From a virus: a DNA stretch of 64,000 nt. The stretch lies in IMG/VR virus record IMGVR_UViG_3300044970_001982, positions 32,001-96,000 of that record; one strand, given 5' to 3'. The translations under genes were made by a program, and so were the position numbers. The notes under the pieces were generated by a model. It saw nothing but the letters and a program-made list of their open reading frames with translations. It ran no database searches and was not told where the DNA came from. This document shows, piece after piece, positions 36,101 through 56,191 of the stretch; within the stretch, counting starts at the first letter, position 1; every line of letters begins with the position of its first letter.

Positions 36101-39100
36101 TAAATATTTCTCTTAAATAATTCTAGGTCTACATCAGAGCAATAGTTAGAGACTAGTTGACCCATACTAGTCATTAAGCTACCATTGCCGAATAGTCCAC
36201 TAACGGGATCTCTACTGAAAACATTAGAAATTCTAAATGCTGCGGAGTTAGCTGCTCCTCCAATATTTAGTTCAGAAAGATTATTATAAACTCCGGCAAC
36301 TGTTTGTCTAATTCCATCTGCACGAGCTCTTTCTATATCATTAAGTGGCTCATACAACATTGTGCCGAAGTGTCTAATGCCGAATCTATTTTCAGAAAAT
36401 ACGGTTCCGTTAGTTGCTCTTGCATAGGCTTCCTTAAATCTACTGGCACCCATGCTAAGAAGTCTAACCATAAGATCTCGTGGCTCCGATAGATACATTC
36501 CAGTATCTACTCCACCATCTATTTTTCCAGTATCTCCCTTTTTATTAGTTGAGTTAACTACAGCGCCTAGCTCAATTGCATCTGATTGAGCAGTGATTGT
36601 TACAATCTCTCCCTGCTCAACATTTGTTATCACTCCATTGAAAACGGTTTGCAAAGAATTTGGATTTGCTCCATATCCACATCTTAAGTGAACTCTAACT
36701 CCTGGCTTGAGTCTTATATTGTTGATATCAACAACATAGTTATTTCTCATTCCAGAAATAATATTTCTAGCGACATTTAATGTTCTATCAAGTATTGCAC
36801 TTATGCCATCGGTTAGATTCAAAGGATCATTGCTGAATTCATCATTATTTGCATTAAATATTTCTGTGGATGGCCGAGTTGTTAACTTAGAATACATATT
36901 TGACATTCTTAAAATAAGAGTGTCACCCAAAAGATCTTCAGAACTTACAACAGAAAAATCAACAATAGATTGTAGTCCGTAGAAATTATCAAATAATTTA
37001 ACACCTGCAAACATTCCACCTTCATCTATTAACCACAGCATGTAAGTTGGAAAGGCTCTAAGCATTCTTCCGGAGATGTCGCGATACTGAATATCATTTA
37101 ACATTTTCTCCATATGGCCGTTAAAGTCACCGCTATATGCTTGCTGATATTGATTCAGTGAACTAACTCCAGCTACTCCTGTTAGAGAGTTTGTGCATCC
37201 CCTATCTGGTGTTTGTGTATCTTCTACGAAATTAGATTGTAACTTTATTTTTGTTCCATTAGAACTATTCTCATCATTTTCTATAGTTACATTGGATCCA
37301 TCTATTGTTAGATAAAATCTTCCATTTTCTTTATTGATATATCCAAAATGAGTTCCAAGTGCAGTCTGCATAAAAGCTGGGATTTCATTTGGATTCTGTT
37401 CTTCTGGATCCATTCCGGGAATTATTGTTATTACTTTATGAAACTCTACTTCATCAGGATCAAAGCTAACTTGGGTTTCATTTTCTAAATGAGAATTAGC
37501 TAAAATATATTTTATTAGATCTTCTGTAGATGTATTTGTTACGCCAACGTTTCCCACTAAATATGGAGCACCGTTTATGTCTTCAAATATTTGCAAATCT
37601 TCACTTGAAGAAGCTGATAAAAAGATAAAATCAGTCAGCAGTGCTTGTTTCCTTACTGATGACTGCCCTTCTGTATTTGCAGAAACAACATCCTGAAATA
37701 TGCTTACAAAATTGTGGACACTAATTCCAGTACTCTGAACATAGTCAATCATTTCGTTTATTAACTGCTCATTAGTAAGTGCCCTTTGCTCTCGGGCATC
37801 TTGGTTATTAGCGTTTGTATAGGAATATCTTGTAATAAAATCTAATATTGTATTTCTAACTGATTGTATTTTTCTCTCTAAGTTATCAGATGTCCCCAAT
37901 GCCCAGTCATCTGAATTATCAAATTCAAACTTTTCAGTTAGATCTAATTGTATTTTTGTATTGTTAATAATATCAGAATCAAACATTGAGAAACTTCTAA
38001 AATAGAAGTCTGGATCTAGATTACCTACAACGCCCCCGTCCTTGTCTTTTATGGACAAAGGAAGATCTGGATACGCATTGAAAGATCCCCACATCTGCTT
38101 AATTCTTAAGAATGGATTTCTTTTTGTTCCAAAATGTTCTATTAATTTTGTTTGTTGGTCTGATGATATCTTCTCTCTTTTTTGCTGGAATATATCAAAG
38201 TCAACAAAACTTAACTGAACAGAATAAACATGTGGATAGTTGGGTATTGTATCTACTCTATAGTTAAGAGGTAATACATACTTAACTCCAGCTAAAGCTG
38301 ATATGATATTTTTAATTCCTAGGAAACCTATAACACCGGTAGAGTGCTCTAATCTAGCTAAACCATTTGCATGATCGAAAATATTCTTTATTTTAATTAA
38401 TTCTTTTTCACCAAAAACAGTTAAAGAAATATTTATATATGTATCTTTGCCACCTATAAATTGATAAGTTGGTTCGTCCTGCATTTGAACTTGCAGCTTT
38501 GCCAAATTGTTACCCATAGTAACGCTTACACCATTAACAATGGCCTCTTTAGGGTTTAGGTCAACTCTAGTCATAGGAACTTCCCATTCGTTAAAATGGT
38601 AGTCACCTTCTCTTAATCGAACTGCTTCCATTAAGTTCTTTACGAATCCATCCTTAAAGAATCTTTCATATAGATTTACCTGGAAAGCGTCAGTTATTTG
38701 TTGACGAATTTTATCTTGATCTACTTCAGTAATACCAGTGCTCTTTTGTTGACGAAGAACTTCTTGATTAACCAATTCATCTACTATTGATCCAGAGGCA
38801 GACGACTCATTGTAAATAGAGTACTTAATATAATTAAGACTTGCGTTATCTCCTTCTGGATTTTTAACAATCTCATTATTTCTATAATAAGATTCAGAAC
38901 CAATTGTTGGATATTGATTAAAATGAAGAGATGGAATTGCATTTTCGCCAGGATAATTTCTTAACCAACTTGCTTGTTCTGAATCTATTCTAGTTATATT
39001 TTCTGAAATAAATGATTGTACTTTATACGCATATACTTTTTCTCTAAAGTCGTCAGTACTGGTGCCTGCTGTCATAATGTCAATTGCTTGACGAACAAAC

Positions 39101-41367
39101 TTTTTAGTGGATAATGGATAAGTTGATTCTAACGAAAGAGAAGATATGTCATTAATATCTTTTATTAATGGTGTAAGACTTGTACGATCAATTCCAAAAT
39201 TTTCTAGAATTCTATCCCAAAGACCAGAACTAGTTTCGTTTAATATTTTTTCTTGCTCACTTCTAAAAGAAGTGCTGTCTGGTAGGAATATTTTTGTTTG
39301 TGTCTCTGCTGGAACAAACAAAGTTAGATTGCTTCCATCTTTCCATTGAGTAACTATATTTGTAGACAGTACATCATTATCGTAAGTGTTAACATATTCT
39401 AAGTTTTCTGCCAAGATGCCATCTTCATCAGTTGTATCTACTGGCATTGCGCCGTATGGACTAACCTCATACGTATCCGCTTGATTTGTAGCTTTATCAT
39501 CTGATGTCTTTAATAAAAACGCCTCACTAACATATCTATGCATTTCTCCTGCGGCTTTGCCCATATATTGACGATATTTACCCCAGTGAATAGCCTGATT
39601 AAAATCTTTAATCATTGGCAAGAATGGCTTGTGATTATAACTGTATAATTCTAAGTCAACTACTAATGCAAATGGATAACTTGGTATTGTTGATATAGAC
39701 ATAGCGGATAGTGCAACAGCTGTAATTCCGTGCACAGAGTTTATATACTGATTCTTGATTGGTAGAATTGGAGAATACTTAAACGCTGCAATTAATCCTC
39801 TGAGTGAGGATAAGAACTTATCTATTTTATCTTCTGAGTCTCCACCATTTTTGAAATCTATAGTAAAGTTTTCATTTAAATCTAAGCTAGAAGCGTCGTC
39901 TATTGAGAGACCCCATATTTCTTCATAGTTAGGGAAAAATAATCTTAACGATACCGTGGTTTCTTTGTATCCAGCATTAAACTTTGGAGTGTTTCTTTGA
40001 CGTATTGCACCACCTGTAAGGGATCCAGTTTTAAATGCAGAATTAACACTAACAGAAACTGGTGGAACATAAAAGTTTGCAGCTCCTAGTCTTAAATGAA
40101 AGATATCTGGTTTTCTAGGTGGTATATTTGCCCTGAATGGAAAATCTTGTAAAGCTTTTTTAATTCTTTCTGAAGTTGTATAAAACTTTTCTGTGCCAGC
40201 TAAAGTAAATATTGGCTTACCAGATTGACTAACGCCAAATGCTTTTTCTAGCGAAAGAATAGCGTCTGCCATATTATTAAGAGTATCCTCTTGGCCTCCA
40301 CCCTTTCCGTTATTTGAATAGTCGCCAACAACAGCTATAGCATCAAAAACAAACGTCAGCAATGATGGGAAATAGTGGTTTATTATAGAGAATGAAATAG
40401 GATCTTGCTGAAGACTATAAACAACTTGACTTAGTTGTTGTAACCATGGAGTATCTACCGATGGATCTATAAAATCATTTGCAGATTTTTTAACTGTTGC
40501 TATATTTTGCAATCTTTTCTTAGCGAACTCTCCTATTTCATAGGCATAGGATGCCAGGTAGATTAAACCCGTAGATTCTAACCTGGAATATATACTTCTA
40601 GCTAAAGTTTCTTCTTCTGAAGTATTTAAAAGATTTTTAATATCTATGCCAAAAACCCTCGAAGTTGCTCTTACATTTTTTTCTGTAATTTCATCTTTTC
40701 TTGTCTTTTGGAAAAATTCTTCCATTGGGTCTACTTGAGTTCCGTCGTTGGCGCCAAAATATATTAAACTAAAGAACCTCTGAACTTGGTAAATTGCTTC
40801 ATCTTCTTCATAATTTTTTTCGTCTTCTACTGTTTCTTCGGAAACCAATCTTTCTTCAAATGCAAGAAGCTGCTCTAGCATTTCATCATTAATGCCAACA
40901 TCTATAGATGTTTCATACCATATTGTTATTCTTTCCAATATTTTAGATGCTAAAAATTTAGTTACCTTTTCATCCGCATCCGTATATGCATAGTTTGTTA
41001 CAAAGTGATTTATTATATCTGCTTCAGTAGAAAGACCTGGATTTTGCAAAACCCCAAATCTAGCGCTTATAACACTAAGATATTCATCTAATACTAAAGA
41101 CGTATTTATTGCTGTTCCAGATATAAAAATCGATACAGATTTTTTGTATAAGGCTAAAGAATATTTATCATTAAAGTCTAAATTAATTAACTGTGAACCG
41201 GTTATATCTGGAGTAGATAAATCTACGTTATCGCCAAACTGAAGGAACGCAGATAGGCTAGATGTAGAAACGGACTGATCTGATAGATAGGCACTTAGGG
41301 TAGTATAGTCTAAGTCGCTTTCAGCTATATATGTAAGAGCTTGTCGTGCTATTGAATTTATTGCCAT
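30130..41367 (-). CDS. Giant baseplate hub fusion: tube-like modules, gp27/gp44-like hub, RlpA-like barrel, hydrophobic helices, C-terminal thermonuclease domain
   Basis: GVRVHLRCGYG...VFNGVITNV and GELIIIGNADIRPHDLVYL...FEVEQVVHHF hub motifs; YIAMKWPY...VSPDAAWYLG; FIDGDT...VRFDGINTGE...LNWELVSNNLAQVY SNase motifs. Confidence 0.75.
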   Translation of the reverse strand: MAINSIARQALTYIAESDLDYTTLSAYLSDQSVSTSSLSAFLQFGDNVDLSTPDITGSQLINLDFNDKYSLALYKKSVSIFISGTAINTSLVLDEYLSVISARFGVLQNPGLSTEADIINHFVTNYAYTDADEKVTKFLASKILERITIWYETSIDVGINDEMLEQLLAFEERLVSEETVEDEKNYEEDEAIYQVQRFFSLIYFGANDGTQVDPMEEFFQKTRKDEITEKNVRATSRVFGIDIKNLLNTSEEETLARSIYSRLESTGLIYLASYAYEIGEFAKKRLQNIATVKKSANDFIDPSVDTPWLQQLSQVVYSLQQDPISFSIINHYFPSLLTFVFDAIAVVGDYSNNGKGGGQEDTLNNMADAILSLEKAFGVSQSGKPIFTLAGTEKFYTTSERIKKALQDFPFRANIPPRKPDIFHLRLGAANFYVPPVSVSVNSAFKTGSLTGGAIRQRNTPKFNAGYKETTVSLRLFFPNYEEIWGLSIDDASSLDLNENFTIDFKNGGDSEDKIDKFLSSLRGLIAAFKYSPILPIKNQYINSVHGITAVALSAMSISTIPSYPFALVVDLELYSYNHKPFLPMIKDFNQAIHWGKYRQYMGKAAGEMHRYVSEAFLLKTSDDKATNQADTYEVSPYGAMPVDTTDEDGILAENLEYVNTYDNDVLSTNIVTQWKDGSNLTLFVPAETQTKIFLPDSTSFRSEQEKILNETSSGLWDRILENFGIDRTSLTPLIKDINDISSLSLESTYPLSTKKFVRQAIDIMTAGTSTDDFREKVYAYKVQSFISENITRIDSEQASWLRNYPGENAIPSLHFNQYPTIGSESYYRNNEIVKNPEGDNASLNYIKYSIYNESSASGSIVDELVNQEVLRQQKSTGITEVDQDKIRQQITDAFQVNLYERFFKDGFVKNLMEAVRLREGDYHFNEWEVPMTRVDLNPKEAIVNGVSVTMGNNLAKLQVQMQDEPTYQFIGGKDTYINISLTVFGEKELIKIKNIFDHANGLARLEHSTGVIGFLGIKNIISALAGVKYVLPLNYRVDTIPNYPHVYSVQLSFVDFDIFQQKREKISSDQQTKLIEHFGTKRNPFLRIKQMWGSFNAYPDLPLSIKDKDGGVVGNLDPDFYFRSFSMFDSDIINNTKIQLDLTEKFEFDNSDDWALGTSDNLERKIQSVRNTILDFITRYSYTNANNQDAREQRALTNEQLINEMIDYVQSTGISVHNFVSIFQDVVSANTEGQSSVRKQALLTDFIFLSASSSEDLQIFEDINGAPYLVGNVGVTNTSTEDLIKYILANSHLENETQVSFDPDEVEFHKVITIIPGMDPEEQNPNEIPAFMQTALGTHFGYINKENGRFYLTIDGSNVTIENDENSSNGTKIKLQSNFVEDTQTPDRGCTNSLTGVAGVSSLNQYQQAYSGDFNGHMEKMLNDIQYRDISGRMLRAFPTYMLWLIDEGGMFAGVKLFDNFYGLQSIVDFSVVSSEDLLGDTLILRMSNMYSKLTTRPSTEIFNANNDEFSNDPLNLTDGISAILDRTLNVARNIISGMRNNYVVDINNIRLKPGVRVHLRCGYGANPNSLQTVFNGVITNVEQGEIVTITAQSDAIELGAVVNSTNKKGDTGKIDGGVDTGMYLSEPRDLMVRLLSMGASRFKEAYARATNGTVFSENRFGIRHFGTMLYEPLNDIERARADGIRQTVAGVYNNLSELNIGGAANSAAFRISNVFSRDPVSGLFGNGSLMTSMGQLVSNYCSDVDLELFKRNIYPGNGTGFAQFLGGDLDDGWSTASSFSQDSTDSLRLAGQRYIESATDRSWNRLIVEAELGSTASTQTIENLVEDNKLVSAEGRAGLVAGVLKGAATIGLAALNPVAGAVAGAGLFGLLRGRGGNNLFRTMGIISPNADDDLQGFDEVSFRAQTYMRTVWDLFQTCARLLPNYIVAVRPFEDRSTIFYGKPHWLYTSGVVPVTTGFPSDEKAAQLNLPGYPKIVQPNNDIENIINQVSSQTNSLADYEAFKRSTELSDVISDLVQDQVNSRGIYAPTASVNGRLINFNSNLASSYSERNENGVYNVVCKLPVNVGKVRMGFHLPVGDPTKTFADRGNDNAQGHAQIDNLPIRFRYPFYTVNENVILNKYSTEIRDGGLLEGTYIDLRADTQGFPVSLKVGSVEIATDDLIDRYVEDGDTVKTGVSGGLEFTKGILALMQEEINFIKENSITIIPSSEITYELDRPLGLASLTDQLNLGEQSLFGEINIVRMPLPSVSIFASGGENDIGALTVTTIDAAENADDYSFEYELNEQISYQEWGSPKGLLEEQFYIAMKWPYKPGSSDKLIQGESLEKFKEQYGFVNLYGTAEDYKNRKVLVFSPLTQRAVVCAPAYFMWGEDSDEDVAAVVSPDAAWYLGSLVSSLVDKVPDELKNNLPNWASIGSTESEDVSINFKHSGGDSRNPLYTLEESSGIAIQPRLVDCFFAFVPDDVPVGVVSSELAPVKRFLVGDDKAVNEEYIIGFGNYTATNGETLTAQRKQLTGSADSLERQLAESSGIFAEWSASNASISDIDYTYGGNVLKSGDDLGYFEAILDITKISNDTDVLSRSTLYDRLDGELYTTGDDDTGSGRVGFAPVYSMMDSVSVEARSFYDENFDPNVSVIAGNGRTLSQANDIWDQFRFGYHTYESVKNIFAKTYGLDPDDTTEFPEEFKRILDKTNSKIFSNFSDNTVDVPGLENVGNIENTGVDELVILLGADFFTDSNRQGTQQGTSQLEARKQTIEFIRTNYIDATSQGISGDAGVIEYFNNVISKSLDNIRVNFFENQIINNLLQYSIENTDNQSEAIKLSDQIKTPKQLFLLMVGLFRQKLWSTAYGRAWLVLKPDRKKGPFGNGKGSEGSWSFKPVDKVFEAFISPYSQYAKGSEKFLQLLVSTASEGSNSSTWIGGIGEDVSDFYQRNIGPIFTAIGDGLSGLLGMFKLNMMQMGYAISEVGNFGKQAHILNKVLNDSIYYSLGRPGTLLRAVDNPFTREYGEPVLEVRQPFQRLHYVSSFSHIISNQIQENLNNVATVVTAVSDGKHPVTVALDKGAPPERQTEITVETGIYYDNMIGSGFLGVLHPLMHPLETFRGVAKNAQGTPDELSARRIALAHLKESIKDIYGGELIIIGNADIRPHDLVYLSDVYERMYGLFEVEQVVHHFTPEMGYITSITPNALVTVNDPSRWFLSSWLRSWLGLQNIRNDTRFYIDNIMASNTGINVGGDISVDALSDALMPQMMGGIEYTHGSTSLVKDIMANQTALTLPQKAQQLIDANKSGSDTGFKAVAGGLIAGSGLIAAAAGGAAAAIALPIVGQLAWKGWKWIRDNVLDQHGCYIQYLNKNGQPMDAGLSYNQGMVVGRYHSKALLPGLLGARTKVKTPEGNVFIRSDDLLKSLGWQEVEIKDLVRHIDYENAITHARVLQLSGLGPEKADLQPSLFRVIVKVTEFIDGDTFWVQDIISGSTFKVRFDGINTGETNTIRVGGIPNEPGNQDNQTQLTSISTPGGRAKLYTEEKLKNRIFVLRTKISNSATDDVIFEQQFQPGANENTVANYAKDVTASERVLGTIWYYQPESVVQQAEQFVTSCFIKNKEKNIGSVDSINNLICLEFFKGIYEDSPMNVKKLSIYNEIINSKLSYFAPEYLRDNAQTNYGISEDDVVKLYNALVAYRILNATYEKTSEWPTIFWDEYYEDGYPVTLNWELVSNNLAQVYAKQVQIESESVISAEESALMPRRVI

Positions 41368-41372
41368 AAAGC

Positions 41373-41819
41373 CTACTTAAACATCATGTTATTTCTAATA
41401 ATAGTTTTTAATCTATCGCTGGAAGAATCCTTCATAGTTGAAGAACTGTAGTTATTAATTATACTAGATTTTGTTTCCAAATTAAAGGAATTTTGAATAA
41501 AATTTGCATTTACTCTGTTGCTGACATCTTTTGAATACCTGGCTTTTTGTTGAGATTTATTATCATAGCCAGTACCATTCATTTGTATATAGGTAGAAGA
41601 TGAGTTGTCCATTCCTTCAAATGAACCTTTAAGCTTGTCAGACTTACCTGTAGCTTGTATCTTTTGTCTAGAATCAGAGACTACATTTCTTGCCGGTGAT
41701 TTAGAAGATGATATTTTAGCTGCGTACTTATTGGCAGTGAGAGTTCTATGAGAGGTGTCTTTAGGCTGTTTTCCAGCAGCGCTTAGTGCTTTATTTTGAT
41801 CTTTTACACCTAAAATCAT
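41373..41819 (-). CDS. Basic, K/S-rich low-complexity protein
   Basis: 148 aa ORF with GGA RBS filling the gap between two large genes. Confidence 0.65.
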   Translation of the reverse strand: MILGVKDQNKALSAAGKQPKDTSHRTLTANKYAAKISSSKSPARNVVSDSRQKIQATGKSDKLKGSFEGMDNSSSTYIQMNGTGYDNKSQQKARYSKDVSNRVNANFIQNSFNLETKSSIINNYSSSTMKDSSSDRLKTIIRNNMMFK

Positions 41820-41830
41820 AGTTAATTATC

Positions 41831-44800
41831 CTAAAAAGATCCGGCAATTTCCTGGTACGGATTTGAAGCTACATCAGGGATTCTATTATACATAGTACTG
41901 TTAATATTTCCATTAGTAAGTCCTGAAGCAGCTTGTCTAAAACTTTCTACCTGATCTCTATTTCCATAGAGGGAAACTTTATAATTCATACCTGGATTAT
42001 AGCTTTTTCCTGACATTGCAGCAATTTCTGATAACTTTCTAGGATAGTCTGATTCATATGCAGATCCTCCAGGTAGTAGTGGTGGACCACTTATATCCTC
42101 AGCAGTTCTATCCTTAGACCCTTGATATATAAAACTTGCAGCTACGGCAAGTCCTGTTCCAATAGCAATATTTCTAACAGTGGGCTTAGCTAACTGTTCC
42201 GATAAGTATTCTTTAGTAATCCTTTGGAATCTTGCCTTTTTTGTCGGAGATCTTTCATCTGAAAGAGCTCGAAGAGTATCTGCAACTACGTCTGGTGTAT
42301 CATCAGCGATTTGATCAGCCGACCTTAATACATTCCCTGATGCATTTGATCCATTAACAAAGGCAGCTGCTTTAGAGTCATTTATTTGAGCTTGCTCATA
42401 AACAACCCTTGCCCTAATCGCACTACTAATTTGAACCTCTTGTGCGGTTGCCTCTGCAGCTTCTTTATCTAATAGTAAGCTCTTAATGACATCAGCCCTG
42501 CCATACTGTTCTCCATTTGAGGAGAAAAATCCATCTACAAAATCAAAATCCATAGAGGTATTTAATATGCCGGCTCTTTGTTCTGGGCTAAAAGTTAATG
42601 ATTCAATAAAATCTTTTAATGCAACATTTGAAGTTGCTCGTTGATAATTTCTTCTTTTTTGCGCCATATCTAAGTATCTATGTAGAGTATGTGCCCTTTC
42701 AACACCATCTCCAATCAAAGTTGTGTCTGGTAGTTTTTCTAATAAACCAAGTGGATATTTTCTTTGAGAAGAAACATATTCCAAAGAGCTAATTAATTCA
42801 TAGCCACTTATGCCCATGGTCCTACTTACATCTTCCATGTCTGCAAGAAGTCTGTCACCAAGTTGGAACTTTAAATTTTCCATACGATACTTGGCCATTT
42901 CTTCTAAGTTTGCATCACCTTGTTGATCCATTATTTCTTTTATAGAGGAAATAATTTGACTATTGCGATCTAAGATATTTTCTGCAGCTATTCTAGACTC
43001 TCTAGTAATATCTGCTGCTAATAGTTGTTCTTGTGATGCGCTTCTTGTCGAATATAGCTTAAATAGTGCGCTACTGTATCTTTCTGATATGTTTGCTGCT
43101 GCTTCCATTTCTGATAGTTTTCCAACACCTATAAATCCTCTTGATCTTAGTAGCTTCTCAACTTCTTCGTGACCACCAGCAACTGCGTCATTAAACTGCT
43201 TAATATCTTCAGCGTTTGCACCGCCTTCAACCATTCCTTGAGAAATTCCTTCAGCGATTATTGTTAGATCTGATTTACTCAATTTTCCACTGGATAATAG
43301 AACTTCATCAATCTTTGCATCAAAGCCTTGATATTGAGATAGAAAGCCAAATAACTTTCCGTACTGGCGCATTGTTGTTTCTCCAAATTGTCCTAAATTA
43401 AGAGCTTGTTGTCCATATATTCTTTCTAAAGCTGTTTTTGCTATACTTGGATCAGATGCAGCGAGTTCAGAAGTATGCTTTAATATTAAACGTCCAGAGG
43501 TAAACGTTTGAGTCATGTCAATTGCGGTTTCAGCTGGAAGCAAGCCAAGCATTATGTTTTTTTGTTTTAATATTTCCTCTATATTTGCAGGCAGTTTATT
43601 TCCTTTAAACATTTGCTCAAATTCATATAAACCTTGACCAATAACAGTAGACCTATTGACATATACGCCAAGTATATTTTCATTTTCTATTGCAGTTTGA
43701 ACACTTCTCTTTAAGAAATCTTCAGACACTACTTGATTAAGTATCTTGTAGTCTATAGAGCTTACTGCCTTATAGAGTGCTTCGGAATCGCCTGCTTTTG
43801 CAAGATCTTTCATTGACTGTATTTGAGTCGCAGACAAATGTGGAGATAGCTTATTAAATAACTCATCAGCAACTTGCATGGTCTCCACTTCTGCCTTTAA
43901 TCTTTGGAAACCTAATGACATAAGCATTGGGTCTTCAGCACCACGTGCAATTAATTGTGTTGCTGAAAGATTTTCTGATGCCGTTCTTCCAAGTCTTTGA
44001 AGAAAAGCGGCGTCAAATTTTCTTCCTTTATTTTGATATAGTTGATCCCAGACTCTTATAGCAGTTTGTTCTATATTATTCATATCAAACATATCATCTA
44101 TAAAATCTTTACCAGTTAATGCTGTTTTTAAAGTAGATAAATCTGAATCACTACTAGCAACTAACATTTCATCTAATTGACGCATAAATAGTTTATTATT
44201 GCCAAATAATTCCTGATAAGTTTCAAGGTCACTAAATCTAGTTAAGCCTATTAATTCTCCAGCTGCTGTTGGTTGACGAGCCATCGCAGCTGCAAATCTT
44301 CTTTTACCACCTGATTCAAAGGTGCCTAAAATTGGCAAACCCTTGTCGTCAAGGTCGAATCCACCTAGGGCATGGTAAAATCTTCTGATGTCATTTTCAT
44401 GGAATAAAATATTATGATTAGATATTCTAAACTTGGCCATCTCAACATTTGTTCCACCAATGTCAAATGCTTCAGCGGTTCCAGAAAGAATGTTCATATT
44501 ACCCTTAACTCCGGTCATAGCATTAGCTTCTGAGTTAATTGCATATCTATAAACTTCTGGAAGAACTGGAAGTTTCATTCCCTTTCTGCTTACAAATAAT
44601 TCTGAATCATAATATACTTTTAATAAGTTTAAATACTCATTTGAATCTCTAATTGAAACTCCACTTTGATGAAGTTCAAGAACTCTTTTTGCCCAGTCTC
44701 TGTTTAACATCTTACTAAATTGTTGCTCTTCAGGTAAGGCATCTATATCCTGTGAGGAAATTTTTCTAATTGCCTTCATGACATTATGGTCTTCATTAAT

Positions 44801-46480
44801 TCTTCCTCTTGCTAAAAGAGCTTCAAATTCATCAAGAACTCCTTTTCTATATTTTTCTATCATAGCAAGTTCTTCTGGTTCGCCAAAAATAGATTGATGA
44901 AAAGCTGTTAACATTGGATCAGAGTAGACTCTACTTGTAGATTCTGCTGCACCGCTGAAGTTTAGAATTGCAGTACCTGCTGCAATTGATGTATCTCTTT
45001 TCAATCCAGCTACACTTGTTATAATTCCATACTTATCAAAACGATCTAGAAAATCAACAACTTGTGCGGCTGATTTATAGTTAACGTCTCTATTGCCTAT
45101 TCTTACAGAACCACGAACAGTCATTTGAGACATCTGTTCGTTTAACTGAGTTAATTGTCTGTCTATTTCTATTCTTCTAGTTATTGAATCTTCATCAAAT
45201 TTTGTAGCTAAACTACTTTTTTCTTTTCTTAATTGAGCTTTAAGATTATTAATATTTTTTCTATTAATTAAAGAAGAACCGTCATATCCCTTTTCAATTT
45301 CATCAAATAAATTACCAATAATACCTTTTTCTGATGAACTAAATGATTTAGACTCTTTTAATTTCTTCTTTGCTATATCTATTCCATATTCACCGGTTGC
45401 AGCATCTATTTGACCAGAATTTGCTATTTCATTTATAAAAGTTTTTAACCTATTCTGAACATCATCTATGTCCAATAAAGCTTTTCCTTCTGCAGCAAGT
45501 TTGCTATTTTCAACATCTATTAATTCTGATAAAGGTGATTTAATTACAGAAAGAGCATCAGCTTGAGATCTATTTGTTCTTATATATGACATTACGTCGG
45601 CCTGTTTTCCAACAGAAGATAACAATCTAGTATCGTTTTCTTCAAAAGCGTAAGCCATTATTTCGAATACATTATCAACATTTAAAGTAGCGTTTGCTAG
45701 AGCAGTCATTCTACTAACAGAATTTGCTGCGCCAGTTGGGTCTAGGAAATTAAATCCTAAAAATGAATCAATTAAAGATCCAGAAAGAGATACATCTCTA
45801 GGAGACAAAACACCCTTGAGTCGTTTTGGCAATTTTGCAAACAATTTGCTTAGACCTTTGTCACCTTGTGATATAGCCCTAAGTAATTCTTCTTCTTCAA
45901 AAAGCCCTCTTCCAGTATCTTGTAAAACTTCTATCGCTTCAGATGTGCTAAGAACTTTATCTCCCAATATAAAATTAAGAGCCATTCCACCTTCATCTGT
46001 AGGGAAAACGAAACCAGTTCCATTGTCGGTCATGCTTTTTAGGAAGTCACCTATAGATTTACTTCCTTGTCTAGCTTTGTGAATTGCTATCTGAGCACTT
46101 AGTGTTTTGCCTTTATATCTATTATTAGTTTTTAGCGCGCTATTCATTTCTGCGAGAACTTGCTCATAACCCCTAAATGTAGATGGGCTTAGTTCGTCTG
46201 CAAAGTTTATATTTGCTAACTCTGTTATTCCAAAACCAGAAACATACGTTGCAGCTTCGTCTACTGTAGAAAATACTTGTTGTGCCGATATTCCTGGAAT
46301 ACCAGATAGTTTTGGATTAAAATAACTTGCCTTAAATTTTAATCTTCCGTCTTCAACAACTGGTTCTATTAATCTTTTTTGTCCAAAATATGTTTTAGAT
46401 AGCGATTGTTTTGCGATCAACATTTGCCTGTCTATTGACAGGTTATTCAAATAAGATGTAACATCTATTATCGGTTCCAC
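41831..46480 (-). CDS. Putative virion-packaged single-chain double-barrel (DPBB) RNA polymerase, with C-terminal hydrophobic helix
   Basis: Ordered motifs GYDGSSLIN, QMTVRG...YKSAAQVV, GIITSVAGLKR, KLPVLPEVYRYAINSE, NILFH...LGGFDLDDK, AMARQPTAAGEL; coupled to the tape measure gene by a TAG/GTG overlap. Confidence 0.6.
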   Translation of the reverse strand: MEPIIDVTSYLNNLSIDRQMLIAKQSLSKTYFGQKRLIEPVVEDGRLKFKASYFNPKLSGIPGISAQQVFSTVDEAATYVSGFGITELANINFADELSPSTFRGYEQVLAEMNSALKTNNRYKGKTLSAQIAIHKARQGSKSIGDFLKSMTDNGTGFVFPTDEGGMALNFILGDKVLSTSEAIEVLQDTGRGLFEEEELLRAISQGDKGLSKLFAKLPKRLKGVLSPRDVSLSGSLIDSFLGFNFLDPTGAANSVSRMTALANATLNVDNVFEIMAYAFEENDTRLLSSVGKQADVMSYIRTNRSQADALSVIKSPLSELIDVENSKLAAEGKALLDIDDVQNRLKTFINEIANSGQIDAATGEYGIDIAKKKLKESKSFSSSEKGIIGNLFDEIEKGYDGSSLINRKNINNLKAQLRKEKSSLATKFDEDSITRRIEIDRQLTQLNEQMSQMTVRGSVRIGNRDVNYKSAAQVVDFLDRFDKYGIITSVAGLKRDTSIAAGTAILNFSGAAESTSRVYSDPMLTAFHQSIFGEPEELAMIEKYRKGVLDEFEALLARGRINEDHNVMKAIRKISSQDIDALPEEQQFSKMLNRDWAKRVLELHQSGVSIRDSNEYLNLLKVYYDSELFVSRKGMKLPVLPEVYRYAINSEANAMTGVKGNMNILSGTAEAFDIGGTNVEMAKFRISNHNILFHENDIRRFYHALGGFDLDDKGLPILGTFESGGKRRFAAAMARQPTAAGELIGLTRFSDLETYQELFGNNKLFMRQLDEMLVASSDSDLSTLKTALTGKDFIDDMFDMNNIEQTAIRVWDQLYQNKGRKFDAAFLQRLGRTASENLSATQLIARGAEDPMLMSLGFQRLKAEVETMQVADELFNKLSPHLSATQIQSMKDLAKAGDSEALYKAVSSIDYKILNQVVSEDFLKRSVQTAIENENILGVYVNRSTVIGQGLYEFEQMFKGNKLPANIEEILKQKNIMLGLLPAETAIDMTQTFTSGRLILKHTSELAASDPSIAKTALERIYGQQALNLGQFGETTMRQYGKLFGFLSQYQGFDAKIDEVLLSSGKLSKSDLTIIAEGISQGMVEGGANAEDIKQFNDAVAGGHEEVEKLLRSRGFIGVGKLSEMEAAANISERYSSALFKLYSTRSASQEQLLAADITRESRIAAENILDRNSQIISSIKEIMDQQGDANLEEMAKYRMENLKFQLGDRLLADMEDVSRTMGISGYELISSLEYVSSQRKYPLGLLEKLPDTTLIGDGVERAHTLHRYLDMAQKRRNYQRATSNVALKDFIESLTFSPEQRAGILNTSMDFDFVDGFFSSNGEQYGRADVIKSLLLDKEAAEATAQEVQISSAIRARVVYEQAQINDSKAAAFVNGSNASGNVLRSADQIADDTPDVVADTLRALSDERSPTKKARFQRITKEYLSEQLAKPTVRNIAIGTGLAVAASFIYQGSKDRTAEDISGPPLLPGGSAYESDYPRKLSEIAAMSGKSYNPGMNYKVSLYGNRDQVESFRQAASGLTNGNINSTMYNRIPDVASNPYQEIAGSF

Positions 46481-49400
46481 TATCTAACACCTGCGCTTAT
46501 ATCAATTTGCTGAGAACCAAAAGGATTCATTACTGGAGTAACTGTTCCTGTTACGCCCATCCCATTCATTAGCGACCTTAACTGATAGGCTATGTCAGCC
46601 CCAGAATTGGATTGTCCAAATTTTGGATAACTTGGGTTTGTAAGATTTGCTTCTTGTATCTGTTGTGGATAGTAACCCATTTGCGACATTTGTAGACCCA
46701 TTGATTGACCCATCTTAATTTTTACTTGATCCATATTGGTATTTGGGTGCCAACCCTCCCAATGTTCAGCAGGTAGTTCGTGTCTGCTAAAGTAATCCAC
46801 TAAGTCTGGTCTACGTTCTACATTCATTCCCCAAGCAGCCTGATATATTCTTCTTTCTAGTCTCCCGGCTGTAGAAAGTATTTGTTGACGTTCTTCAACC
46901 GGAGCATTTATCATCGCTTTAAAGTGTTCTCTTTTTCTTTTTGGAATAGCTAAAGATAAACTTTCTATATCAGTTCCATATTTACCGGAATTAATATCTT
47001 CTATAGGAGCTCCATACATTGTTCTTTTTGCTGCAGATCTAAATTGGAAAGCTGCGCCTCTGTCGCCAGAAGCCTCTGCCATATTTGCCAACCTAGTATT
47101 CTTTACATATGTTAATATGTCTGCATACTCTTCTAGTGCTAGTTCCTTTTTTCTAGTTTCTGGAATAAATTTTTCTCCAGTTATTGCTTCTTTAGCTTGA
47201 TTAAAAGAAGAAACAACTAAACCTGTAATTGCTCCTACTGCAGATGAGATTAACTTTCCTTTTGCAGTTTTGCCAAAAAATGTTCCCGTAACTGCTAAAG
47301 CAGAGGCTGCTGCTAATGGATTTCTATTTGCAGCTTTGTTGATCATTGGTTCTATGAAGCTTTCTACTGGCCTTTGCCATTCTGGGAAAGTTGCCCCATA
47401 AACATTGTTTCTTTCCCAATCCTCAACAGCAGTAGTTTTGTTTAAAAATTTTCTATTTATAAAAGTATCTCTGTGAGCTATATATTCGGCTGCTCTTCCA
47501 AGCGCATATGGCAGTGGATGAGACCCTGCCTCTTGGGCTGATTGATATCTATATTTATAATCTGTAAATTGACGTTTCTGCTGTGCTGCCAATGTTCTTT
47601 CCCTAAGATCTTGAACATATATACGATCAGCAGGGTCATTAACCATCGTGTCAATTTTTTTATCTAAAGCTCTATACTGCCTAGAGTAAGGAGCAACATC
47701 TCCTAATATTTTATATTGATCCAATAGCCCGTATCTACCAGTTTCATCAGACCTAAGTCTATTTAATCTTTCGTACGCAACTCCGGGTAGTCTTAGTTCG
47801 CCTTCTTGAACTTTGGCAAATGGGTCACCGGTCGTAAAGTCTGTAAAATACTCAGGTCCTGGCAAGAATGGATATTGTTGTCCCATAAGATTTCTTATTG
47901 GATTAATGTAATTAACGTCTGTTCTTTCTTTCGGTATGAATCTTCTTGTTACTTCAGAAAATTCTAAAGACCCTACTTGAGAACCAGACATAAGTGGGAT
48001 ATCTCCCAATCCACCAAGATTAAGATCCCAAAATTGACGACTTGTACCATAAGCTTTAGATGCTGCCTGCAAAACAGATCTTTGTGGAGCAAAATCTGAT
48101 TGTCCATATCCAAAATTTTCACGCAAAGTACCTATTCCGAAACCATAAATACCTAGCATTTCTTGAGTTCTATAGCCTAGCTCCTGTGACTGAACCTGAA
48201 CATTTCCAACACTTAGAGGAGCTCCTGCTGGTATTATTCTTTGTGGCATTACGCCAGATACCTTGCTTGGACCATAGGCCATCTGCAAATATTGGTTATT
48301 AATACTTGATATTGTATTTCTTGTATCTGCTTGAGCCGTATTTAAGGCCCCAGCTCGTCCTGCTAACATTGCATTTGTAGATGCTTGCATTCCGCCAGCT
48401 CCACTAGATGATACTCCTCCGACTGGGATTGGCATTCCTGATCCAAGTGGTCCTCCTGGAACTGATCCCTGAGTCATTCCACCAGATATATAGGCTGCTG
48501 CATTATATGCTCCGGACTGGCCAGCTGGAGCATAATTAGCTAATCCGGCTGCTAACTCTCTTTCGTGCATTAGGGTTTCTGGTTTTAGAATTCTTCCAAC
48601 TGTTGCATTTAGGGCCGGGACTAGAGGTCCAAATGGACCACTAAAGTATTCTCCAGTTACAGGGTATGGTCTATCGACAAAGTGTTTTCTTTCAAATCTA
48701 TAAGGATCAAATGGTCTAAGTGGAGATATGTCAGTATAAAATAAAGCTTTTTCTATTGGGCTTCCATATGTATCTGAGGTAAACATTGCCCCAGCTTCTA
48801 TCTTTCTATAGATGCTCGGACGATAATACATAATCTTTCCGCCCATAAATGGCGTATTACCCAATGGCCAGAAACGTCCTTGGCGAATAGCTACTTCACC
48901 TTCAAATAATTGTTCTTTTTTCTCTTGAAAATTCATTCCACCAGGAGTTATTCCAGCCCCAAGTGCATGTAGATTTCCGGCTACTTTAGCTGCACCACCG
49001 ATAAAGAATGGAGAGTATACTCTTTCTCCCCTTTCATCTTTTTCATTAACCATTCCGCCAATAGTTCTATCTACTGTCATTATTCCTGTTCCGGCGGCGT
49101 ATATTGGAAGAACTCTTTTTCCAACCATGCCAGAAGCAAATAGACTTAATGGAGATGAGTATTTATTTACATCAAGCTGCAGTCCAAGTGTACCAAAATA
49201 TTTATTTAATCTTTCCACTCCATGAGAGATAGCTGCTGATGCACTTGAATAACCTTGGGTATTATTAAATGTGTTTATGCCTAGAACACTCTTTATTGCT
49301 GCAAAAGGGTCTCTACCAAAAACAGTGCCAAACGTAGGCGTTAATAACACGTCTGCGCCGGGTCCTCTTGTAGAGCCTAAGGCATCTGAAGCAAAGTCTG

Positions 49401-52400
49401 ACATTGAATATGGCGCTGTGCTGAGCTTTGGATATAAGAATTGCTTGAATAAGCCAGACTTTCCAATTTCACCTATTCTAGCTGTCGTTCCTTTGACGTA
49501 TGGATCCAAAAGTTTTTCGACACCAGATACACCCTTTTCTGCGTTACCTCTTATTATAGAAGCTGCTTCTCTTACAGAGCCTCTTTGTACTGCCAGGTTA
49601 CTAAGGTTGCTTCTATTGGCCCTGAATGAACTTAGGTTTAGCAAGGTAGAAAAGGCCGCAGCTTGTGCTTCCGCTAATTGACCAGCTGGTAATTGTCCGG
49701 CCATTTCTGATATTGCCTGGTTAATCTGTATAAATGCATTTCCATAAGATCTACCAGTTGCACCTGCCGCCCCTTGTGCAAGTAGTTCATCTCTTTGTAT
49801 TAAGTATCTAAATATCTCATTTTTTAACTGATCTTCTCTAGTTAAAATAGTCGGGCTTTTTGCTCTAATATGCGAACCAGACATCAAGTCTGCTTCTTCT
49901 AGCATCTTTCTGATTCTACTACCCATCATGTAGAAGGTGTCGGTATCAAAGCCTCTACTTCTTAATTGTGCTGCGTCGTCTGTAGATCTAGCCAGAATTC
50001 TTTGAGCAAACGCTATGGTATCTTGAACATTATTTAATTCTGAAGTTCTTTGACCATAAAATGTGCCTACTCCACGATCCTCTATTGACTTCATTACTTT
50101 TCTCGGCATTGCTGTGCCAAAAGTGGACTTTCTAAATCTTTCAAAAGCCCTTAAAAATTCTCCCTCAGAAATCATTTCTGCGCCAGAATCATCAACTATT
50201 CTTACAGCGCTACTTGCTTCAGCTCCAACATCTAATTTGTAGTTTTTTCCTTTTACGTTTACTGTTTCGCCTTTTAGTATTCTTGCAAAAAAAGCTGGAT
50301 TGTCTACATCTGTTTTTCTTTGGGCAAATCTTTTTAATAGACCTGGTAGTGAATTTGGTTGCTCAAAGTCAATGTCAAATTTTTCTCTAAACTGTAATTC
50401 TTTTTGTGGAGAAACTCTTAGAGCCTTAAATAACTTAGATCTATTTATGGGGTTTCCATTTTCGTCTAATTTAAGAGCGTTTAATTGATTTAGAGATTTC
50501 ACATCTCTTTCTGAGGCTGCATTTCTAGCTTGCCTTGAGAGCATTTCTGAACTAGTTCTTGATAAAGGTCTATAGAATCCTTCTAATTGCCTGGATTGAT
50601 ATTGTCCAGTCATAGCCTCTCTATTAAAGGCCATAACCTGTCCCTTAGTTCTTCCTCCACTAAAGAATAAGTAGAAATCAGCTGCTTGATCAGTTTCACT
50701 TAAAAATGGTTGAGCCACTTTTCCTTGAACAATTTGAAATGGTGCTCGACCAGCCATTTCATCAAAAGAACCTTTGCCCAACATTTGCGCTGGGTTAAAG
50801 TTAAGAATAGGAATTTTCAAATCTCTTGCAAAGAAATTTCCTACATTACTTATGGATTGTCTTATTCCAGAAAAGTCTAATACATTTCCGGACCTAGTAA
50901 CATAGGTGTCTCTTAATACTGAAACGCTAGCAGAAGTTGTTGTTGGATCTTGAAGTGCTACTCTTTTTCCAATATCTCTAATTATATTTTGACTATCGTC
51001 TGTTAAATTGGAGAATATTCCTTTTTCAAATCCCTCGTCTAATGTCATTGGCCTAAGGCCAAGGATGTTATACCCTCCAGCAAATATGCCTGAGCTTATT
51101 TGTTTTTCTCTAACTAGAAATGACCTCATCTGAAGTAAGTTGGAGGTATCTATTCCTAGACCGGCTAATCGATTTGATAAAACTGCCTCTGAAACGTCTC
51201 TACCATCAGAATGTTTTAGCTGAACACCCATTCTTTGAGCTGATCTTTTTATTAAGAAGTCTCTTTTAGCGCTGGTTAAATTATTTAAATCGCTAAAATC
51301 TTCAAAAGATGCTTTTTTAGTTTTTAGTATCTTTGATGCAACTGCGGGAAAACCCTGATCTGACACAGCTGACCAAGCTTTTTCGGCCCTTCTTCTCAAT
51401 TGGGCTTGAAATTCTCTACCTTCAAAAACTCTGGTAGCGTCATCAATGGATGATCTTAGGGCATCAGTAGTTAAGAATCCTCCTGGAATATTTGTGTTTG
51501 CAGTACCAGAGAATCTTGTTAATATTTCTTCAAAAGCTTCATCGCCTTCTTTCAATATTTTTGTTTTGCCAATAGTAATTTTTCTACTGACTTCAGTTAC
51601 GCCTCTTTCAACGTGAATCTGATTAACAAAATTATTGGTTAGCTTTTCAAAAGCTTCATCATTTGTTCTTCCTGCATTTTTTAATATTGCTCTTTGCAAT
51701 ACTTCTTTGTAGGCAGATTGTTCTTGCCCTCTAAAAAATTCAGAAGTATAAAAAGATCCAGATCCTACTCCACCACCACCAGTGGACTCTATCTTTTGTG
51801 CCAATCTGGACATTCTATTTCCATATCCAGATTGAATTCTTTTGATAACTGAAGTTAAATCACTAGCGTCTGATATTATTCCCCTGGATGCACCAGAACG
51901 AACCATGGTATCAAATTCAACAGATCTGTTAATTACATCGTAGCCTGCACCGACTTTTCTAAATTCATTTATACCCTGACGAACAGAAGATCCTAGACCC
52001 CTTAGTCCGGGAAGTAGATCTATATATCCAAAGCTCCCATCTGCTCCATCACCAAATGCTAATCTTCTACCAAATGTAGCTGCTCTTTTTAAGGTGTTTT
52101 GTCCTGATGAGGCGGCCCATGCCTCTCTAGCTCTAGTATTTCTTGCTGCTGATAATATAGCAGGTAAGTTTGGCCTGTCTGCGTAGTATTGCTTAGTAGC
52201 TGCCTGTATGCCACCAGAGGTTTGTGCAGATATTTTTAAAGCTTGATTAGCTATCTTACTAAGATCGTGTCCAACTTCAGATAAAACATCGCTTAAATCT
52301 ACAAACTTTTGTGCTGCTCGTGTCTTAAATGTATTTACACCCATTGACCTGGTAACATCACCCATTGACTGCCTGAAGGTCATTATAGAGTGACGAGCAT

Positions 52401-53155: not shown

Positions 53156-53785
53156 CTAACCTACACCCCACAACTTACGAGCAATGGGGTCTTCATATTT
53201 TGCTTCTCCATCTTTAATGGACATATTGTGGCGAGCTGCTCTAATCTTCTCTTTTTCTTCTTCTTCTTCAGGATCTATTAATTGCAAAGTAAGATTTGTT
53301 GGCTCTATACCATTTATTCCTTGTTTAATTTCTATGATTTTTTCTGCTAGTGCAACTTTTTCAGCTAATTCAGAAAATGTCATTTCATCTAAATTTTCAG
53401 GAGTATATGTACTTATAGTAGCGAGAACAAAGGCTTTCATTAAATTTTTAACTTCTGTTGCTTCAAATCTTTTTGATTCTAAAGTAGCCTTCGCTACTTT
53501 TACGCTAAAGAATCCAGATATATCTAATATCTCTTGAGCTAAAGAAGATACTGCTCCTGGAGGAATTCTCATTGTATCAAATTGCTCTGGGTATATTATG
53601 GCAAAAGATAATATTAGATCTTCCATATCAGCTGATGAAAAATCTTCTAATTCTTGCAAATAAAGAATTTTATTATATTCTTTAAATGTCAACTCTCTAA
53701 ATATAAGAGTCTGCCCTTTGATATCAACGCTATAGATATTTCCATATTTGTTTTTTAAAGCAAAAACTAAATCTGAATCTATCAT
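53156..53785 (-). CDS. Tail assembly chaperone 2 (paralogue of upstream gene with C-terminal extension)
   Basis: LKNKYGNIY...FRELTFKEY...YP...SLAQEILDISGF aligns with the upstream ORF; directly before the tape measure gene. Confidence 0.75.
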   Translation of the reverse strand: MIDSDLVFALKNKYGNIYSVDIKGQTLIFRELTFKEYNKILYLQELEDFSSADMEDLILSFAIIYPEQFDTMRIPPGAVSSLAQEILDISGFFSVKVAKATLESKRFEATEVKNLMKAFVLATISTYTPENLDEMTFSELAEKVALAEKIIEIKQGINGIEPTNLTLQLIDPEEEEEKEKIRAARHNMSIKDGEAKYEDPIARKLWGVG

Positions 53786-53788
53786 TTC

Positions 53789-54331
53789 TTATAACTGTCT
53801 TACCTCTAAAGCCACGAATCCAGAAGCCTCTAAAACCTCTTGGGCGATTAGCGATGGCAATCCTGCCATAAATCCAGTGGAGTTATTCTTATCAAATTTT
53901 GGATACAACATGCATAGCTCTGCAATTGTCTCTTCATTCCAGAGATTTGCCTCAGCAGTTGAAAGCTGTCCAGCCTGAACTAACTGTTCCATCTTTTTGA
54001 CAATTTGCTTATACTCTGCTCTATTTAATACTCTCCATACAACATGCTTATCATATGTAATAGAGGTTACATATATGTCGCCATATTGCTTTTTCCAGTC
54101 TTTGACCAGGCCAGCCTTTGGTCCATTTTCCCAGATTTCTTCATCATCGGGAACGTCTTCAATGTCTTTATAATCTGCTTCATCGTCAGAATCCATTGAC
54201 TCTTCAACGAAAGAGATATCGTCATTCAAGTTACTAACGTCCTCTAAAGATAGGTCAATTGTTGCTGTTTTAGAATCTTCATTTGATTCAATGTCTATAT
54301 TCGAAACTACAACTTTTCTTTTATTATCCAT
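53789..54331 (-). CDS. Tail assembly chaperone 1
   Basis: WKKQYGDIY...WRVLNRAEY...YP...LIAQEVLEASGF; acidic N-terminus; AAGGAG RBS; position between tube and tape measure genes. Confidence 0.75.
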   Translation of the reverse strand: MDNKRKVVVSNIDIESNEDSKTATIDLSLEDVSNLNDDISFVEESMDSDDEADYKDIEDVPDDEEIWENGPKAGLVKDWKKQYGDIYVTSITYDKHVVWRVLNRAEYKQIVKKMEQLVQAGQLSTAEANLWNEETIAELCMLYPKFDKNNSTGFMAGLPSLIAQEVLEASGFVALEVRQL

Positions 54332-56119: not shown

Positions 56120-56136
56120 ATTATTCTCCTATAACT

Positions 56137-56171
56137 AAAAAGGTGCACGGAATATACATCCATGCACCTTT
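56137..56171 (-). terminator. Intrinsic terminator after the major tail tube gene
   Basis: Minus strand AAAGGTGCATGGA-tgtatat-TCCGTGCACCTTTTT: long stem plus U-tract. Confidence 0.85.
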
Positions 56172-56191
56172 GTTAGAGAGTGATAAAACTA

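Follow-up and report, generated by a model that had tools for sequence, protein, structure and literature searches.

A family of putative two-barrel RNA polymerases from uncultured phages, with a D-x-D-D loop and a downstream R-x-P motif

To our knowledge, a D-x-D-x-D metal-binding loop preceded by an R-x-P gate is treated as universal in two-barrel RNA polymerases (RNAPs), whether these are bacterial, RNA interference (RNAi) enzymes or phage virion polymerases. A gene in the IMG/VR virus record IMGVR_UViG_3300044970_001982 (we analysed positions 32,001 to 96,000, a stretch of 64,000 nucleotides called the window below) raises the question of how a catalytic centre may be built that matches neither signature. 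Its product, P0001, is a putative single-chain two-barrel RNAP. As a first-pass annotation of the window had correctly read, its acidic loop is LGGFDLDDK (aa 705-713, nt 44342-44368), and RQPT (aa 735-738, nt 44267-44278) follows, with R735 lying 23 residues past D712 (22 between) and 26 past D709. The annotation proposed that the catalytic double-psi beta-barrel (DPBB) is circularly permuted or has a transposed strand, with the third Asp shifted by one position, in either a new polymerase subclass or a degenerate enzyme kept for a structural role. Our analysis gives somewhat better than even support to another explanation, that P0001 represents a new family from uncultured phages, putatively tail-delivered two-barrel RNAPs whose catalytic centre is remodelled and unpermuted.

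Conservation of the two motifs

A word-seeded search of 5.8 billion proteins returned 102 homologues, all metagenomic and unannotated, with lengths of about 1050-1800 aa; the contigs that carry them reach 209 kb. LGGFDLDDKG and RQP were invariant in 102/102, so that GFDLDD followed by RQP, the combination singled out by the first-pass annotation, held throughout. Scanning IMG/VR with the pattern GGFDLDD gave 105 confirmed loci, 80 of which were retained. Since both searches may favour sequences that carry the motif, we also ran a core profile, with no word index, over 1.84 billion cluster representatives, and obtained 230 clusters at E<=1e-3 (166 at E<=1e-30). The loop reads G-[GT]-[FYHM]-D-x-D-D-[KHST] in the 226 aligned sequences from this search, where 222/222 rows with residues at these positions have D-x-D-D. 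The second motif is RQP in 200 rows, RDP in 17, RTP in 3, and RAP, RRP and RGP in 1 each. The best 150 of the 230 matches were listed, and rarer motif variants are possible among the weakest relatives.

In the merged alignment of 292 unique sequences, D709, D711 and D712 are each found in 285/285 rows, and R735, P737 and E742 each in 286/286, with a variable residue between R and P. Outside the two motifs, D400 (244/244), D988 (264/264), K494 (267/268) and R645 (278/285) stand out, along with R456 (246/262), K469 (240/257) and E651 (238/285). Members at 15-20% core identity retain D-x-D-D, R-x-P, E742, D400, D988, K494 and R645. Among the matches listed, no D-x-D-x-D variant of the loop was seen (285/285 rows are D-x-D-D), and no conserved R-x-P was found upstream of the loop, where the best position has one in 22/292 sequences. 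We conclude that the D-x-D-D loop and the downstream R-x-P are real and under strong selection. The loop is non-canonical, as had been proposed, and the invariance of its residues at 15% identity argues for an active enzyme and against the degenerate one.

The core's only conserved R-x-P therefore follows the loop, an order found in none of five reference enzymes. By sequence, R-x-P stands ahead of the first Asp by 35 residues in E. coli beta' (R425, D460), by 38 in gp96 (R741, D779) and in P23-45 gp64 (R288, D326), and by 39 in crAss phi14:2 gp66 (R1322, D1361); in QDE-1, R962-x-P964 lies 45 residues before D1007 (PMC9508822). The motif GGFDLDD ... RQP offers a simple annotation handle for proteins that are now all 'hypothetical'.

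No cultured relative is known: tblastn against 50,697 phage records gave no match to P0001, and the DnaE encoded on the same contig has at best matches of only about 38%, to unrelated phages. The ESM Atlas had no usable match, and our literature search found no description of the family. A second word-based search, started from the distant member P0220, returned close relatives only and no bridge to canonical RNAPs.

Predicted fold and domain layout

The core (aa 380-1110) was modelled with AlphaFold2 from a 67-sequence alignment, with a mean pLDDT (predicted local distance difference test) of 77 and a pTM (predicted template modelling score) of 0.73. When this model was compared with the PDB by Foldseek, the top rows were QDE-1, RDR2 and the gp64 RNA polymerase of phage P32, with weak E-values. 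VIA-align against 48,161 representative chains placed QDE-1 first (Z 6.8, 355 residues aligned, model 10-681 against chain 700-1148), and the next long alignments were with P74 gp62 (Z 5.4, 285), maize ZmRDR2 (Z 5.3, 324) and P23-45 gp96 (Z 4.6, 236). Re-scoring of the Foldseek matches with VIA-align gave ten best rows that were all single-chain two-barrel RNAPs, with 319-360 residues aligned over a 670-residue span. The re-scored rows include 2J7N (QDE-1; Z 7.6, 356 aligned), 7EU1_M (RDR2; Z 7.5, 319 aligned, root-mean-square deviation (rmsd) 4.5), 7RQS (Z 7.0), 8F72 (Z 5.7) and crAss gp66 (6VR4; Z 3.6, 390 aligned); non-polymerase rows aligned about 50-60 helical residues each, no more. Model residues 10-684 aligned sequentially to QDE-1 700-1148 (Z 7.6) and to RDR2 546-945 (Z 7.5), in the order DPBB-B, connector, DPBB-A. 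Because all long matches belong to one enzyme class and span both barrels and the connector in order, P0001 is probably a homologue of two-barrel polymerases. The earlier designation as a putative RNAP is thus borne out by the predicted fold.

In a separate comparison with BFVD, three uncharacterised proteins of uncultured Caudovirales (A0A6J5NTF7, A0A6J5M9G6 and A0A6J5MEC6) matched the core model at Foldseek E 3e-8 to 3e-5 and 13-15% identity, and crAss-like proteins came next, weakly. The three may be more distant relatives with intermediate motif arrangements.

The predicted first barrel falls within the stretch aligned to QDE-1 and RDR2. Known enzymes use conserved basic DPBB-B residues to hold the RNA 3' end and the nucleoside triphosphate (NTP), and have an acidic DPBB-B residue near metal B. 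The (nearly) invariant R456, K469, K494 and D400 of P0001 are in the region of these residues, an equivalence by region and not by residue. D400 is possibly the counterpart of D709 of QDE-1, the Asp of DPBB1 that helps to bind cation B, because model residue 10 aligns with chain residue 700, which would put D400 (model 21) within about 2 residues of it, as judged from aligned ranges only. The helical connector has about 107 residues, against about 130-140 in QDE-1 and gp66 (bioRxiv 10.1101/2020.03.07.982082). In two-barrel RNAPs a bridge helix and a trigger loop come after DPBB-A; past the catalytic barrel of P0001, a long helix with invariant G938, N942 and R943 is a candidate equivalent of the bridge helix. 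The C-terminal ~110 residues are among the best-conserved parts of P0001 and had no match in Pfam or PHROGs; they may form a module for packaging or for anchoring in the tail lumen. A membrane helix was considered and rejected, as no 19-residue window of P0001 has a Kyte-Doolittle mean above 1.6.

Strand order in the catalytic barrel

The order of strands and helices assigned by DSSP is listed in Table 1. The block formed by the strand hairpin, the helix, the Asp loop and the following strand has the order and spacing seen in E. coli beta', gp96, gp64 and gp66; by hand count, the start of the strand hairpin lies 32 residues before the first Asp, compared with about 27-31 in those enzymes. When the barrel was modelled in isolation (aa 615-775, pLDDT 70), it aligned with gp96 at Z 3.0 (73/87 model residues, model 28-114 against chain 680-794, which holds R741 and DFDGD 779-783), with a plastid beta' (8W9Z chain C) at Z 2.5 (49 residues, rmsd 2.1, model 29-106) and with UFD1 at Z 2.0; Foldseek gave noise. 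These matches are weak, but the best are DPBB domains. Plastid chain C 386-508 is presumably E. coli 349-471, a guess at numbering that neither PDB sequence matches nor the literature confirmed. The alignments begin at about residue 642, just before strand 646-650, and end just past the strand that leaves the Asp loop; therefore the D-x-D-D loop appears to sit at the place of DFDGD, and the upstream strand to be part of the barrel. The loop can be read in two ways. Either D709 and D711 are the first two canonical Asp residues and D712 is at the Gly position, or G-F-D-L-D-D is set against D-F-D-I-D of crAss, with the first Asp lost and one added past the third.

We then turned to coevolution, using mean-field direct coupling analysis (DCA) of aa 622-765 (282 sequences, effective number Meff 150). 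The pair 649-690 scored 3.59, more than 9 standard deviations above the mean, and 650-689 and 648-693 were above the 99.9th percentile. Strand 646-650 pairs antiparallel with strand 690-693, the sole safe pairing from coevolution. Weaker pairs, 643-715 (1.70), 731-748 (1.76), 733-746 (1.42) and 680-747 (1.46), fit an arrangement with segment 643-650 facing the Asp loop and the beginning of 713-723, with 726-736 beside 743-748, and with 743-748 near 677-687. In a double-psi barrel, the strand corresponding to 690-693 has its hairpin partner on one side and, on the other, the strand with R-x-P at its end, as can be derived from the published parallel-strand psi topology. From this topology and the 646-650/690-693 pairing it follows that upstream strand 646-650, which ends in S/T-E, would fill the canonical R-x-P slot.

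These data bear directly on the proposal that the barrel is circularly permuted, or that its R-x-P strand is transposed past the Asp loop, so that RQP would be homologous to NRAPTLH/RNP and occupy the same slot. The RQP strand does run antiparallel to the strand leaving the Asp loop and, by DSSP and register, carries R-x-P at its loop-near end like the canonical strand; R-Q-P-[ST] is also the wording of Rpb1, and an upstream R-x-P is absent. However, the 22 residues between D712 and R735 are too few for the strand-strand-helix-strand half barrel that a permutation would move, and the domain order is canonical, as in QDE-1. The slot at issue, beside 690-693, is taken by strand 646-650, whereas the RQP strand couples with 743-748, so it is not simply the canonical strand moved. 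Sequential alignments to canonical barrels, moreover, start at about residue 642 and continue through the loop. We therefore regard permutation or transposition as improbable. A converse arrangement, with RQP as the canonical gate and a separate metal loop 35-45 residues downstream of it, was rejected, since no conserved acidic motif is present there.

Where, then, does R-x-P lie? The register of the hairpin formed by 713-723 and 726-736 (11 + 2 + 11 residues by DSSP; couplings 718-731/732, 720-730 and 722-726/727, with sums of about 1449) would set Q736 opposite K713, R735 opposite G714 and P737 opposite D712. R-x-P would then be at the barrel end of the Asp loop, across from D712-G714 and beside the loop's C-terminal end, at the base of the hairpin that returns on the strand leaving the loop. 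The canonical gate is beside the N-terminal end of the Asp loop, on the other flank. By secondary structure and register, the conserved residues E651, D709, D711, D712, K713, R735, P737 and E742 are all at the same end of the barrel. Neither of the two observations that the first-pass annotation named as counter-evidence was thus made: an upstream equivalent of R-x-P is lacking, and RQP is conserved and, by the hairpin register, would face D712-G714.

A further alternative keeps the barrel canonical, with 629-632 and 635-639 as its first hairpin and 713-748 as an added beta-hairpin arm. RQP would be unrelated to NTP gating (serving, for example, in nucleic-acid holding or loop bracing), and the enzyme would either need no Pro-Gate or have R645 or R685 in its stead. 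A hairpin at 629-639 does precede strand 646-650, the 643-715 contact fits a psi-loop crossing, and R645 and R685 are highly conserved. On the other hand, an invariant R and P with a free residue between them is the signature of the Pro-Gate, and structural alignments exclude 629-639. The modelled hairpin 713-723/726-736, moreover, is paired over its full length, and therefore leaves no free edge for strand 635-639. We consider this alternative rather unlikely, and lean slightly towards 726-736 and 743-748 replacing the barrel's ancestral first hairpin, as judged from the model, rather than forming an added arm. In its full form, this rewiring would let 726-736 and 743-748 substitute for the N-terminal hairpin in closing the barrel, leaving a single psi-loop, and would have the R-x-P gate and the third Asp move together across the metal loop; we offer it as a tentative possibility. 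If true, P0001 would be the first natural two-barrel polymerase with both 'universal' signatures rearranged yet functional, and the barrel would link double-psi barrels to the simpler cradle-loop barrels.

Tail-module context, proposed role and known systems

The window belongs to one IMG/VR contig of 109,100 bp (G+C 35.5%, CheckV completeness about 52%) with nearly all genes on the same strand. PHROG and Pfam scans indicate that its source is an uncultured large myovirus with a tail module. P0001 is placed within the structural module, between the sheath and tube genes and the baseplate genes, and its GTG start overlaps the stop of the preceding 2220-aa gene. This gene, tape-measure-like by position only, had no family match in Pfam or PHROG scans and is kept in 18/18 related loci inspected. 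The giant gene downstream matches phrog_20474, a 1954-position 'endolysin' family, and encodes a giant multi-domain tail or hub-like protein, in which aa 1839-1873 and 3300-3327 are rich in Gly/Ala and strongly hydrophobic. After it, in minus-strand order, come a 759-aa gene, a baseplate wedge gene (25277-26446) and more large virion proteins. The order tube, ~175 aa, 209 aa, ~2210 aa, polymerase-like gene, ~148 aa and giant gene was found in 18/18 IMG/VR loci inspected, which are diverse.

Table 1. Features of P0001 and of the neighbouring genes (nt, positions in the window)
Feature	nt	Strand	aa	Remarks
P0001, putative single-chain two-barrel RNA polymerase	41831..46480	minus	1549	open reading frame (ORF), GTG start
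D400-G401, invariant	45278..45283	minus	400-401	D in 244/244 rows
first barrel (DPBB-B-like), predicted, with R456, K469, K494	44936..45133	minus	~450-515	strands model 74-130
helical connector between barrels	44597..44917	minus	~522-628	~107 residues; helices model 143-249
catalytic barrel (DPBB-A-like), predicted	44237..44596	minus	629-748	DSSP strand/helix order on models
strand			629-632	DSSP
strand			635-639	DSSP
segment V-Y-R645-Y-A-I-N-S-E651	44528..44554	minus	643-651	strand 646-650 ends S/T-E, not R-x-P
single beta-bridge			643	DSSP
strand			646-650	DSSP
variable insertion			652-676	DSSP
strand			677-687	DSSP
strand			690-693	DSSP
helix			695-705	DSSP
metal-binding loop LGGFDLDDKG (D709, D711, D712), putative	44339..44368	minus	705-714	invariant D-x-D-D
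loop GGFDLDD			706-712	between helix and strand, as DFDGD in known enzymes
strand			713-723	DSSP
two-residue turn			724-725	DSSP
strand ending in R735-Q			726-736	DSSP
R735-Q736-P737, core's only conserved R-x-P	44270..44278	minus	735-737	R and P in 286/286 rows, X variable
loop P-T-A-A-G-E			737-742	DSSP
E742, five residues past P737	44255..44257	minus	742	invariant, 286/286 rows
strand			743-748	DSSP
long helix, invariant G938, N942, R943	43604..43675	minus	936-959	helix model 557-580
D988 (A-I-D), invariant	43517..43519	minus	988	264/264 rows
C-terminal module (GPPLLPGGSAYE ... TMYNRIP)	41834..42163	minus	~1440-1549	conservation 0.56-0.64 per 30-residue window
tail sheath gene	56882-58117	minus		PHROG/Pfam
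two tube-like genes	55358-56854	minus		PHROG/Pfam
180-aa protein	53789-54331	minus	180	upstream of the 2220-aa gene
209-aa protein	53156-53785	minus	209	directly upstream of the 2220-aa gene
2220-aa gene, tape-measure-like by position only	46480..53142	minus	2220	after sheath, tube-like and two paralogous genes
148-aa gene	41373..41819	minus	148	downstream of P0001, always adjoining the polymerase-like gene
giant tail or hub-like protein	30130..41367	minus	3745	phrog_20474, E 3.7e-121; position conserved

By blastp (E 1e-6) the 209-aa and 180-aa proteins are paralogous; they occupy the usual place of tail-assembly chaperones, and both genes are kept in all related loci. Several related IMG/VR contigs carry the polymerase-like gene as two ORFs (L035:8948-13604 and L036:8951-13724, also L038, L042 and L047; L024:8908-13741; L078:8719-14017). 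The split is about 70 aa past the DxDD/RxP block in one subclade (for example 754 + 762 aa) and near the N-terminus in other contigs (257 + 1329 aa; 338 + 1426 aa). That independent contigs share such a split speaks for a genuine division of the gene, of the beta/beta' kind, and against sequencing errors.

Other genes of the contig code for a DnaE-type Pol III alpha, a DnaB-like helicase, a Cas4-like nuclease and a ribonucleotide reductase. A 286-aa protein outside the window (L085:16910-17770, on G000:C1) has a weak match to sigma-70 region 4 or a LuxR-type helix-turn-helix (E 7e-5, below the Pfam cut-off) and is a candidate phage sigma-like factor. The canonical beta'-type domain PF00623 was not found on the ~52% complete contig, and no search was aimed at T7-like polymerases. 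At the contig start (G000:C1:1-280, also outside the window) an exact second copy of the first 100 nt at offset 177 forms a tandem direct repeat, which could be a repeat within a gene or an assembly artefact.

Taken together, the explanation that we favour is as follows. The P0001 family, large and known only from uncultured phages, would comprise single-chain homologues of two-barrel RNA polymerases. After an N-terminal region, the chain would form the first barrel, in which Arg and Lys are conserved, then the helical connector and the catalytic barrel, and would end in a helical C-terminal part. The catalytic centre would be remodelled and not circularly permuted: the Mg2+-binding triad D709-x-D711-D712 would keep the usual place between the helix and the next strand, upstream strand 646-650 would take the slot of the Pro-Gate strand, and R735-x-P737, beside D712-G714, would take over NTP gating from the missing Pro-Gate, acting from the other side of the loop. 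The gating role is suggested because an invariant R and P, a free middle residue and then S/T are the signature of a Pro-Gate. The enzyme would most likely be carried in the virion, be ejected with the DNA and transcribe the first phage genes, because its gene is in the tail module, between the tape-measure-like and the giant hub-like genes, and gp96 and gp66 are precedents. The sigma-like gene would, speculatively, fit a later hand-over to the host polymerase.

Several points weigh against this explanation. Sequence methods link the family to no RNAP: P0001 itself matched nothing in Pfam or PHROGs, and P0001 and its neighbours gave nothing relevant there; Pfam applied to 39 core sequences at E<=10 returned no RNAP family; PDB searches by sequence (phmmer, and hmmsearch with the profile) gave only noise; and when the family profile was compared by hhalign with gp66, with gp64 and with a beta' alignment of 80 sequences, nothing better than a 6-residue 'GLP' match emerged. 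(The beta' loci taken from genome contigs were 83-100% alike, too similar for a useful profile.) The structural Z of about 7.5 is 'middling' by the tool's own scale, the isolated barrel reaches Z 3 at best, and neither of the two defining signatures, D-x-D-x-D and upstream R-x-P, is present. Beyond 649-690 the coevolution is weak, and in the segment table the known hairpins do not rise above background. Where R735 would lie with respect to the Asp residues is deduced from secondary structure and register, virion packaging is suggested by gene position, and with a contig only about 52% complete other polymerases may be encoded elsewhere.

The lack of a sequence-level link, Z-scores of 7.6 or less, the two missing signatures and the place of the gene among structural genes could also mean that P0001 is not a working polymerase. 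It might be a tail protein, ejected or structural, that retains a relic barrel. Or it might be a metal-dependent enzyme of another kind, and its likeness to two-barrel RNAPs an artefact of a moderate-confidence model. Acidic and basic residues that are invariant at 15% identity are, however, hard to explain without catalysis, and all long structural matches are two-barrel RNAPs, covering both barrels and the connector in order; we judge this reading very unlikely.

The P0001 family is, judging by its predicted fold, best filed among the two-barrel RNAPs, as one that lacks two sequence signatures by which the class is defined yet retains its fold. Hundreds of members keep D-x-D-D and the downstream R-x-P invariant, and, if they are active, the catalytic centre can be rebuilt. 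The family would then be a natural experiment on how Mg2+ and the 2'-OH of the NTP are read, and a further lineage, the third and an independent one, of RNA polymerases delivered by tail or virion, in widespread uncultured myoviruses of 100-200 kb.

Virion-delivered RNA polymerases of phages include N4 gp50, crAss gp66 and P23-45 gp96. The last is a two-barrel RNAP within the tape measure that is delivered through the tail and transcribes the pre-early genes (PMC10770324), and crAss gp66 is a packaged giant virion RNAP, likewise delivered (bioRxiv 10.1101/2020.03.07.982082). Structurally, the best matches of P0001 are QDE-1 and the RDR-type polymerases of RNAi (PDB 2J7N, 7Y7P, 7EU1, 7RQS; Z 7.0-7.6, 318-360 aligned). 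In these enzymes, as in the predicted fold of P0001, one chain holds both barrels, with the helical connector between the first and the catalytic one, and an Asp-rich loop stands between helix and strand. In QDE-1, R-x-P forms the 'Pro-Gate loop', in which Arg binds the 2'-OH groups of the NTP while Pro probes the minor groove; the P964A substitution leaves almost no activity (PMC9508822). P0001, in contrast, shares no detectable sequence similarity with these enzymes, has D-x-D-D instead of D-[LY]-D-G-D, carries R-x-P 26 residues past the first Asp and not 45 before it as in QDE-1, and has large additional N- and C-terminal parts and a gene in a phage tail module.

Among phage two-barrel RNAPs, P23-45 gp96 and gp64, P74 gp62 and P32 gp64 (PDB 8H2N, 8F5M, 8F72) match at Z 4.6-5.7, and gp96 matches the barrel alone at Z 3.0. 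The tail-delivered gp96 is fused to its tape measure, whereas P0001 is a separate gene abutting a tape-measure-like one, and the P23-45 group are siphoviruses whereas P0001 is from a myovirus. Both gp96 and gp64 keep DFDGD/DYDGD with RNP/RRP 38 residues upstream, unlike P0001. The crAss phi14:2 gp66 (PDB 6VR4), encoded among structural genes, is a giant, virion-packaged, single-chain two-barrel RNAP. Its loop, DFDID, already lacks the Gly of DFDGD, and G-F-D-L-D of P0001 can be read against it; the match, however, scores weakly (Z 3.6, 390 aligned), and gp66 keeps Asp at i, i+2 and i+4 and R1322-I-P upstream. Finally, beta'/Rpb1 (NRAPTLH ... NADFDGD) has the same arrangement and spacing of hairpin, helix, Asp loop and strand, with a weak match to plastid beta' (49 residues, rmsd 2.1), but it divides between two subunits what P0001 carries in one chain; relative to it, the Asp triad of P0001 is compressed, and its putative gate motif would lie across the loop.

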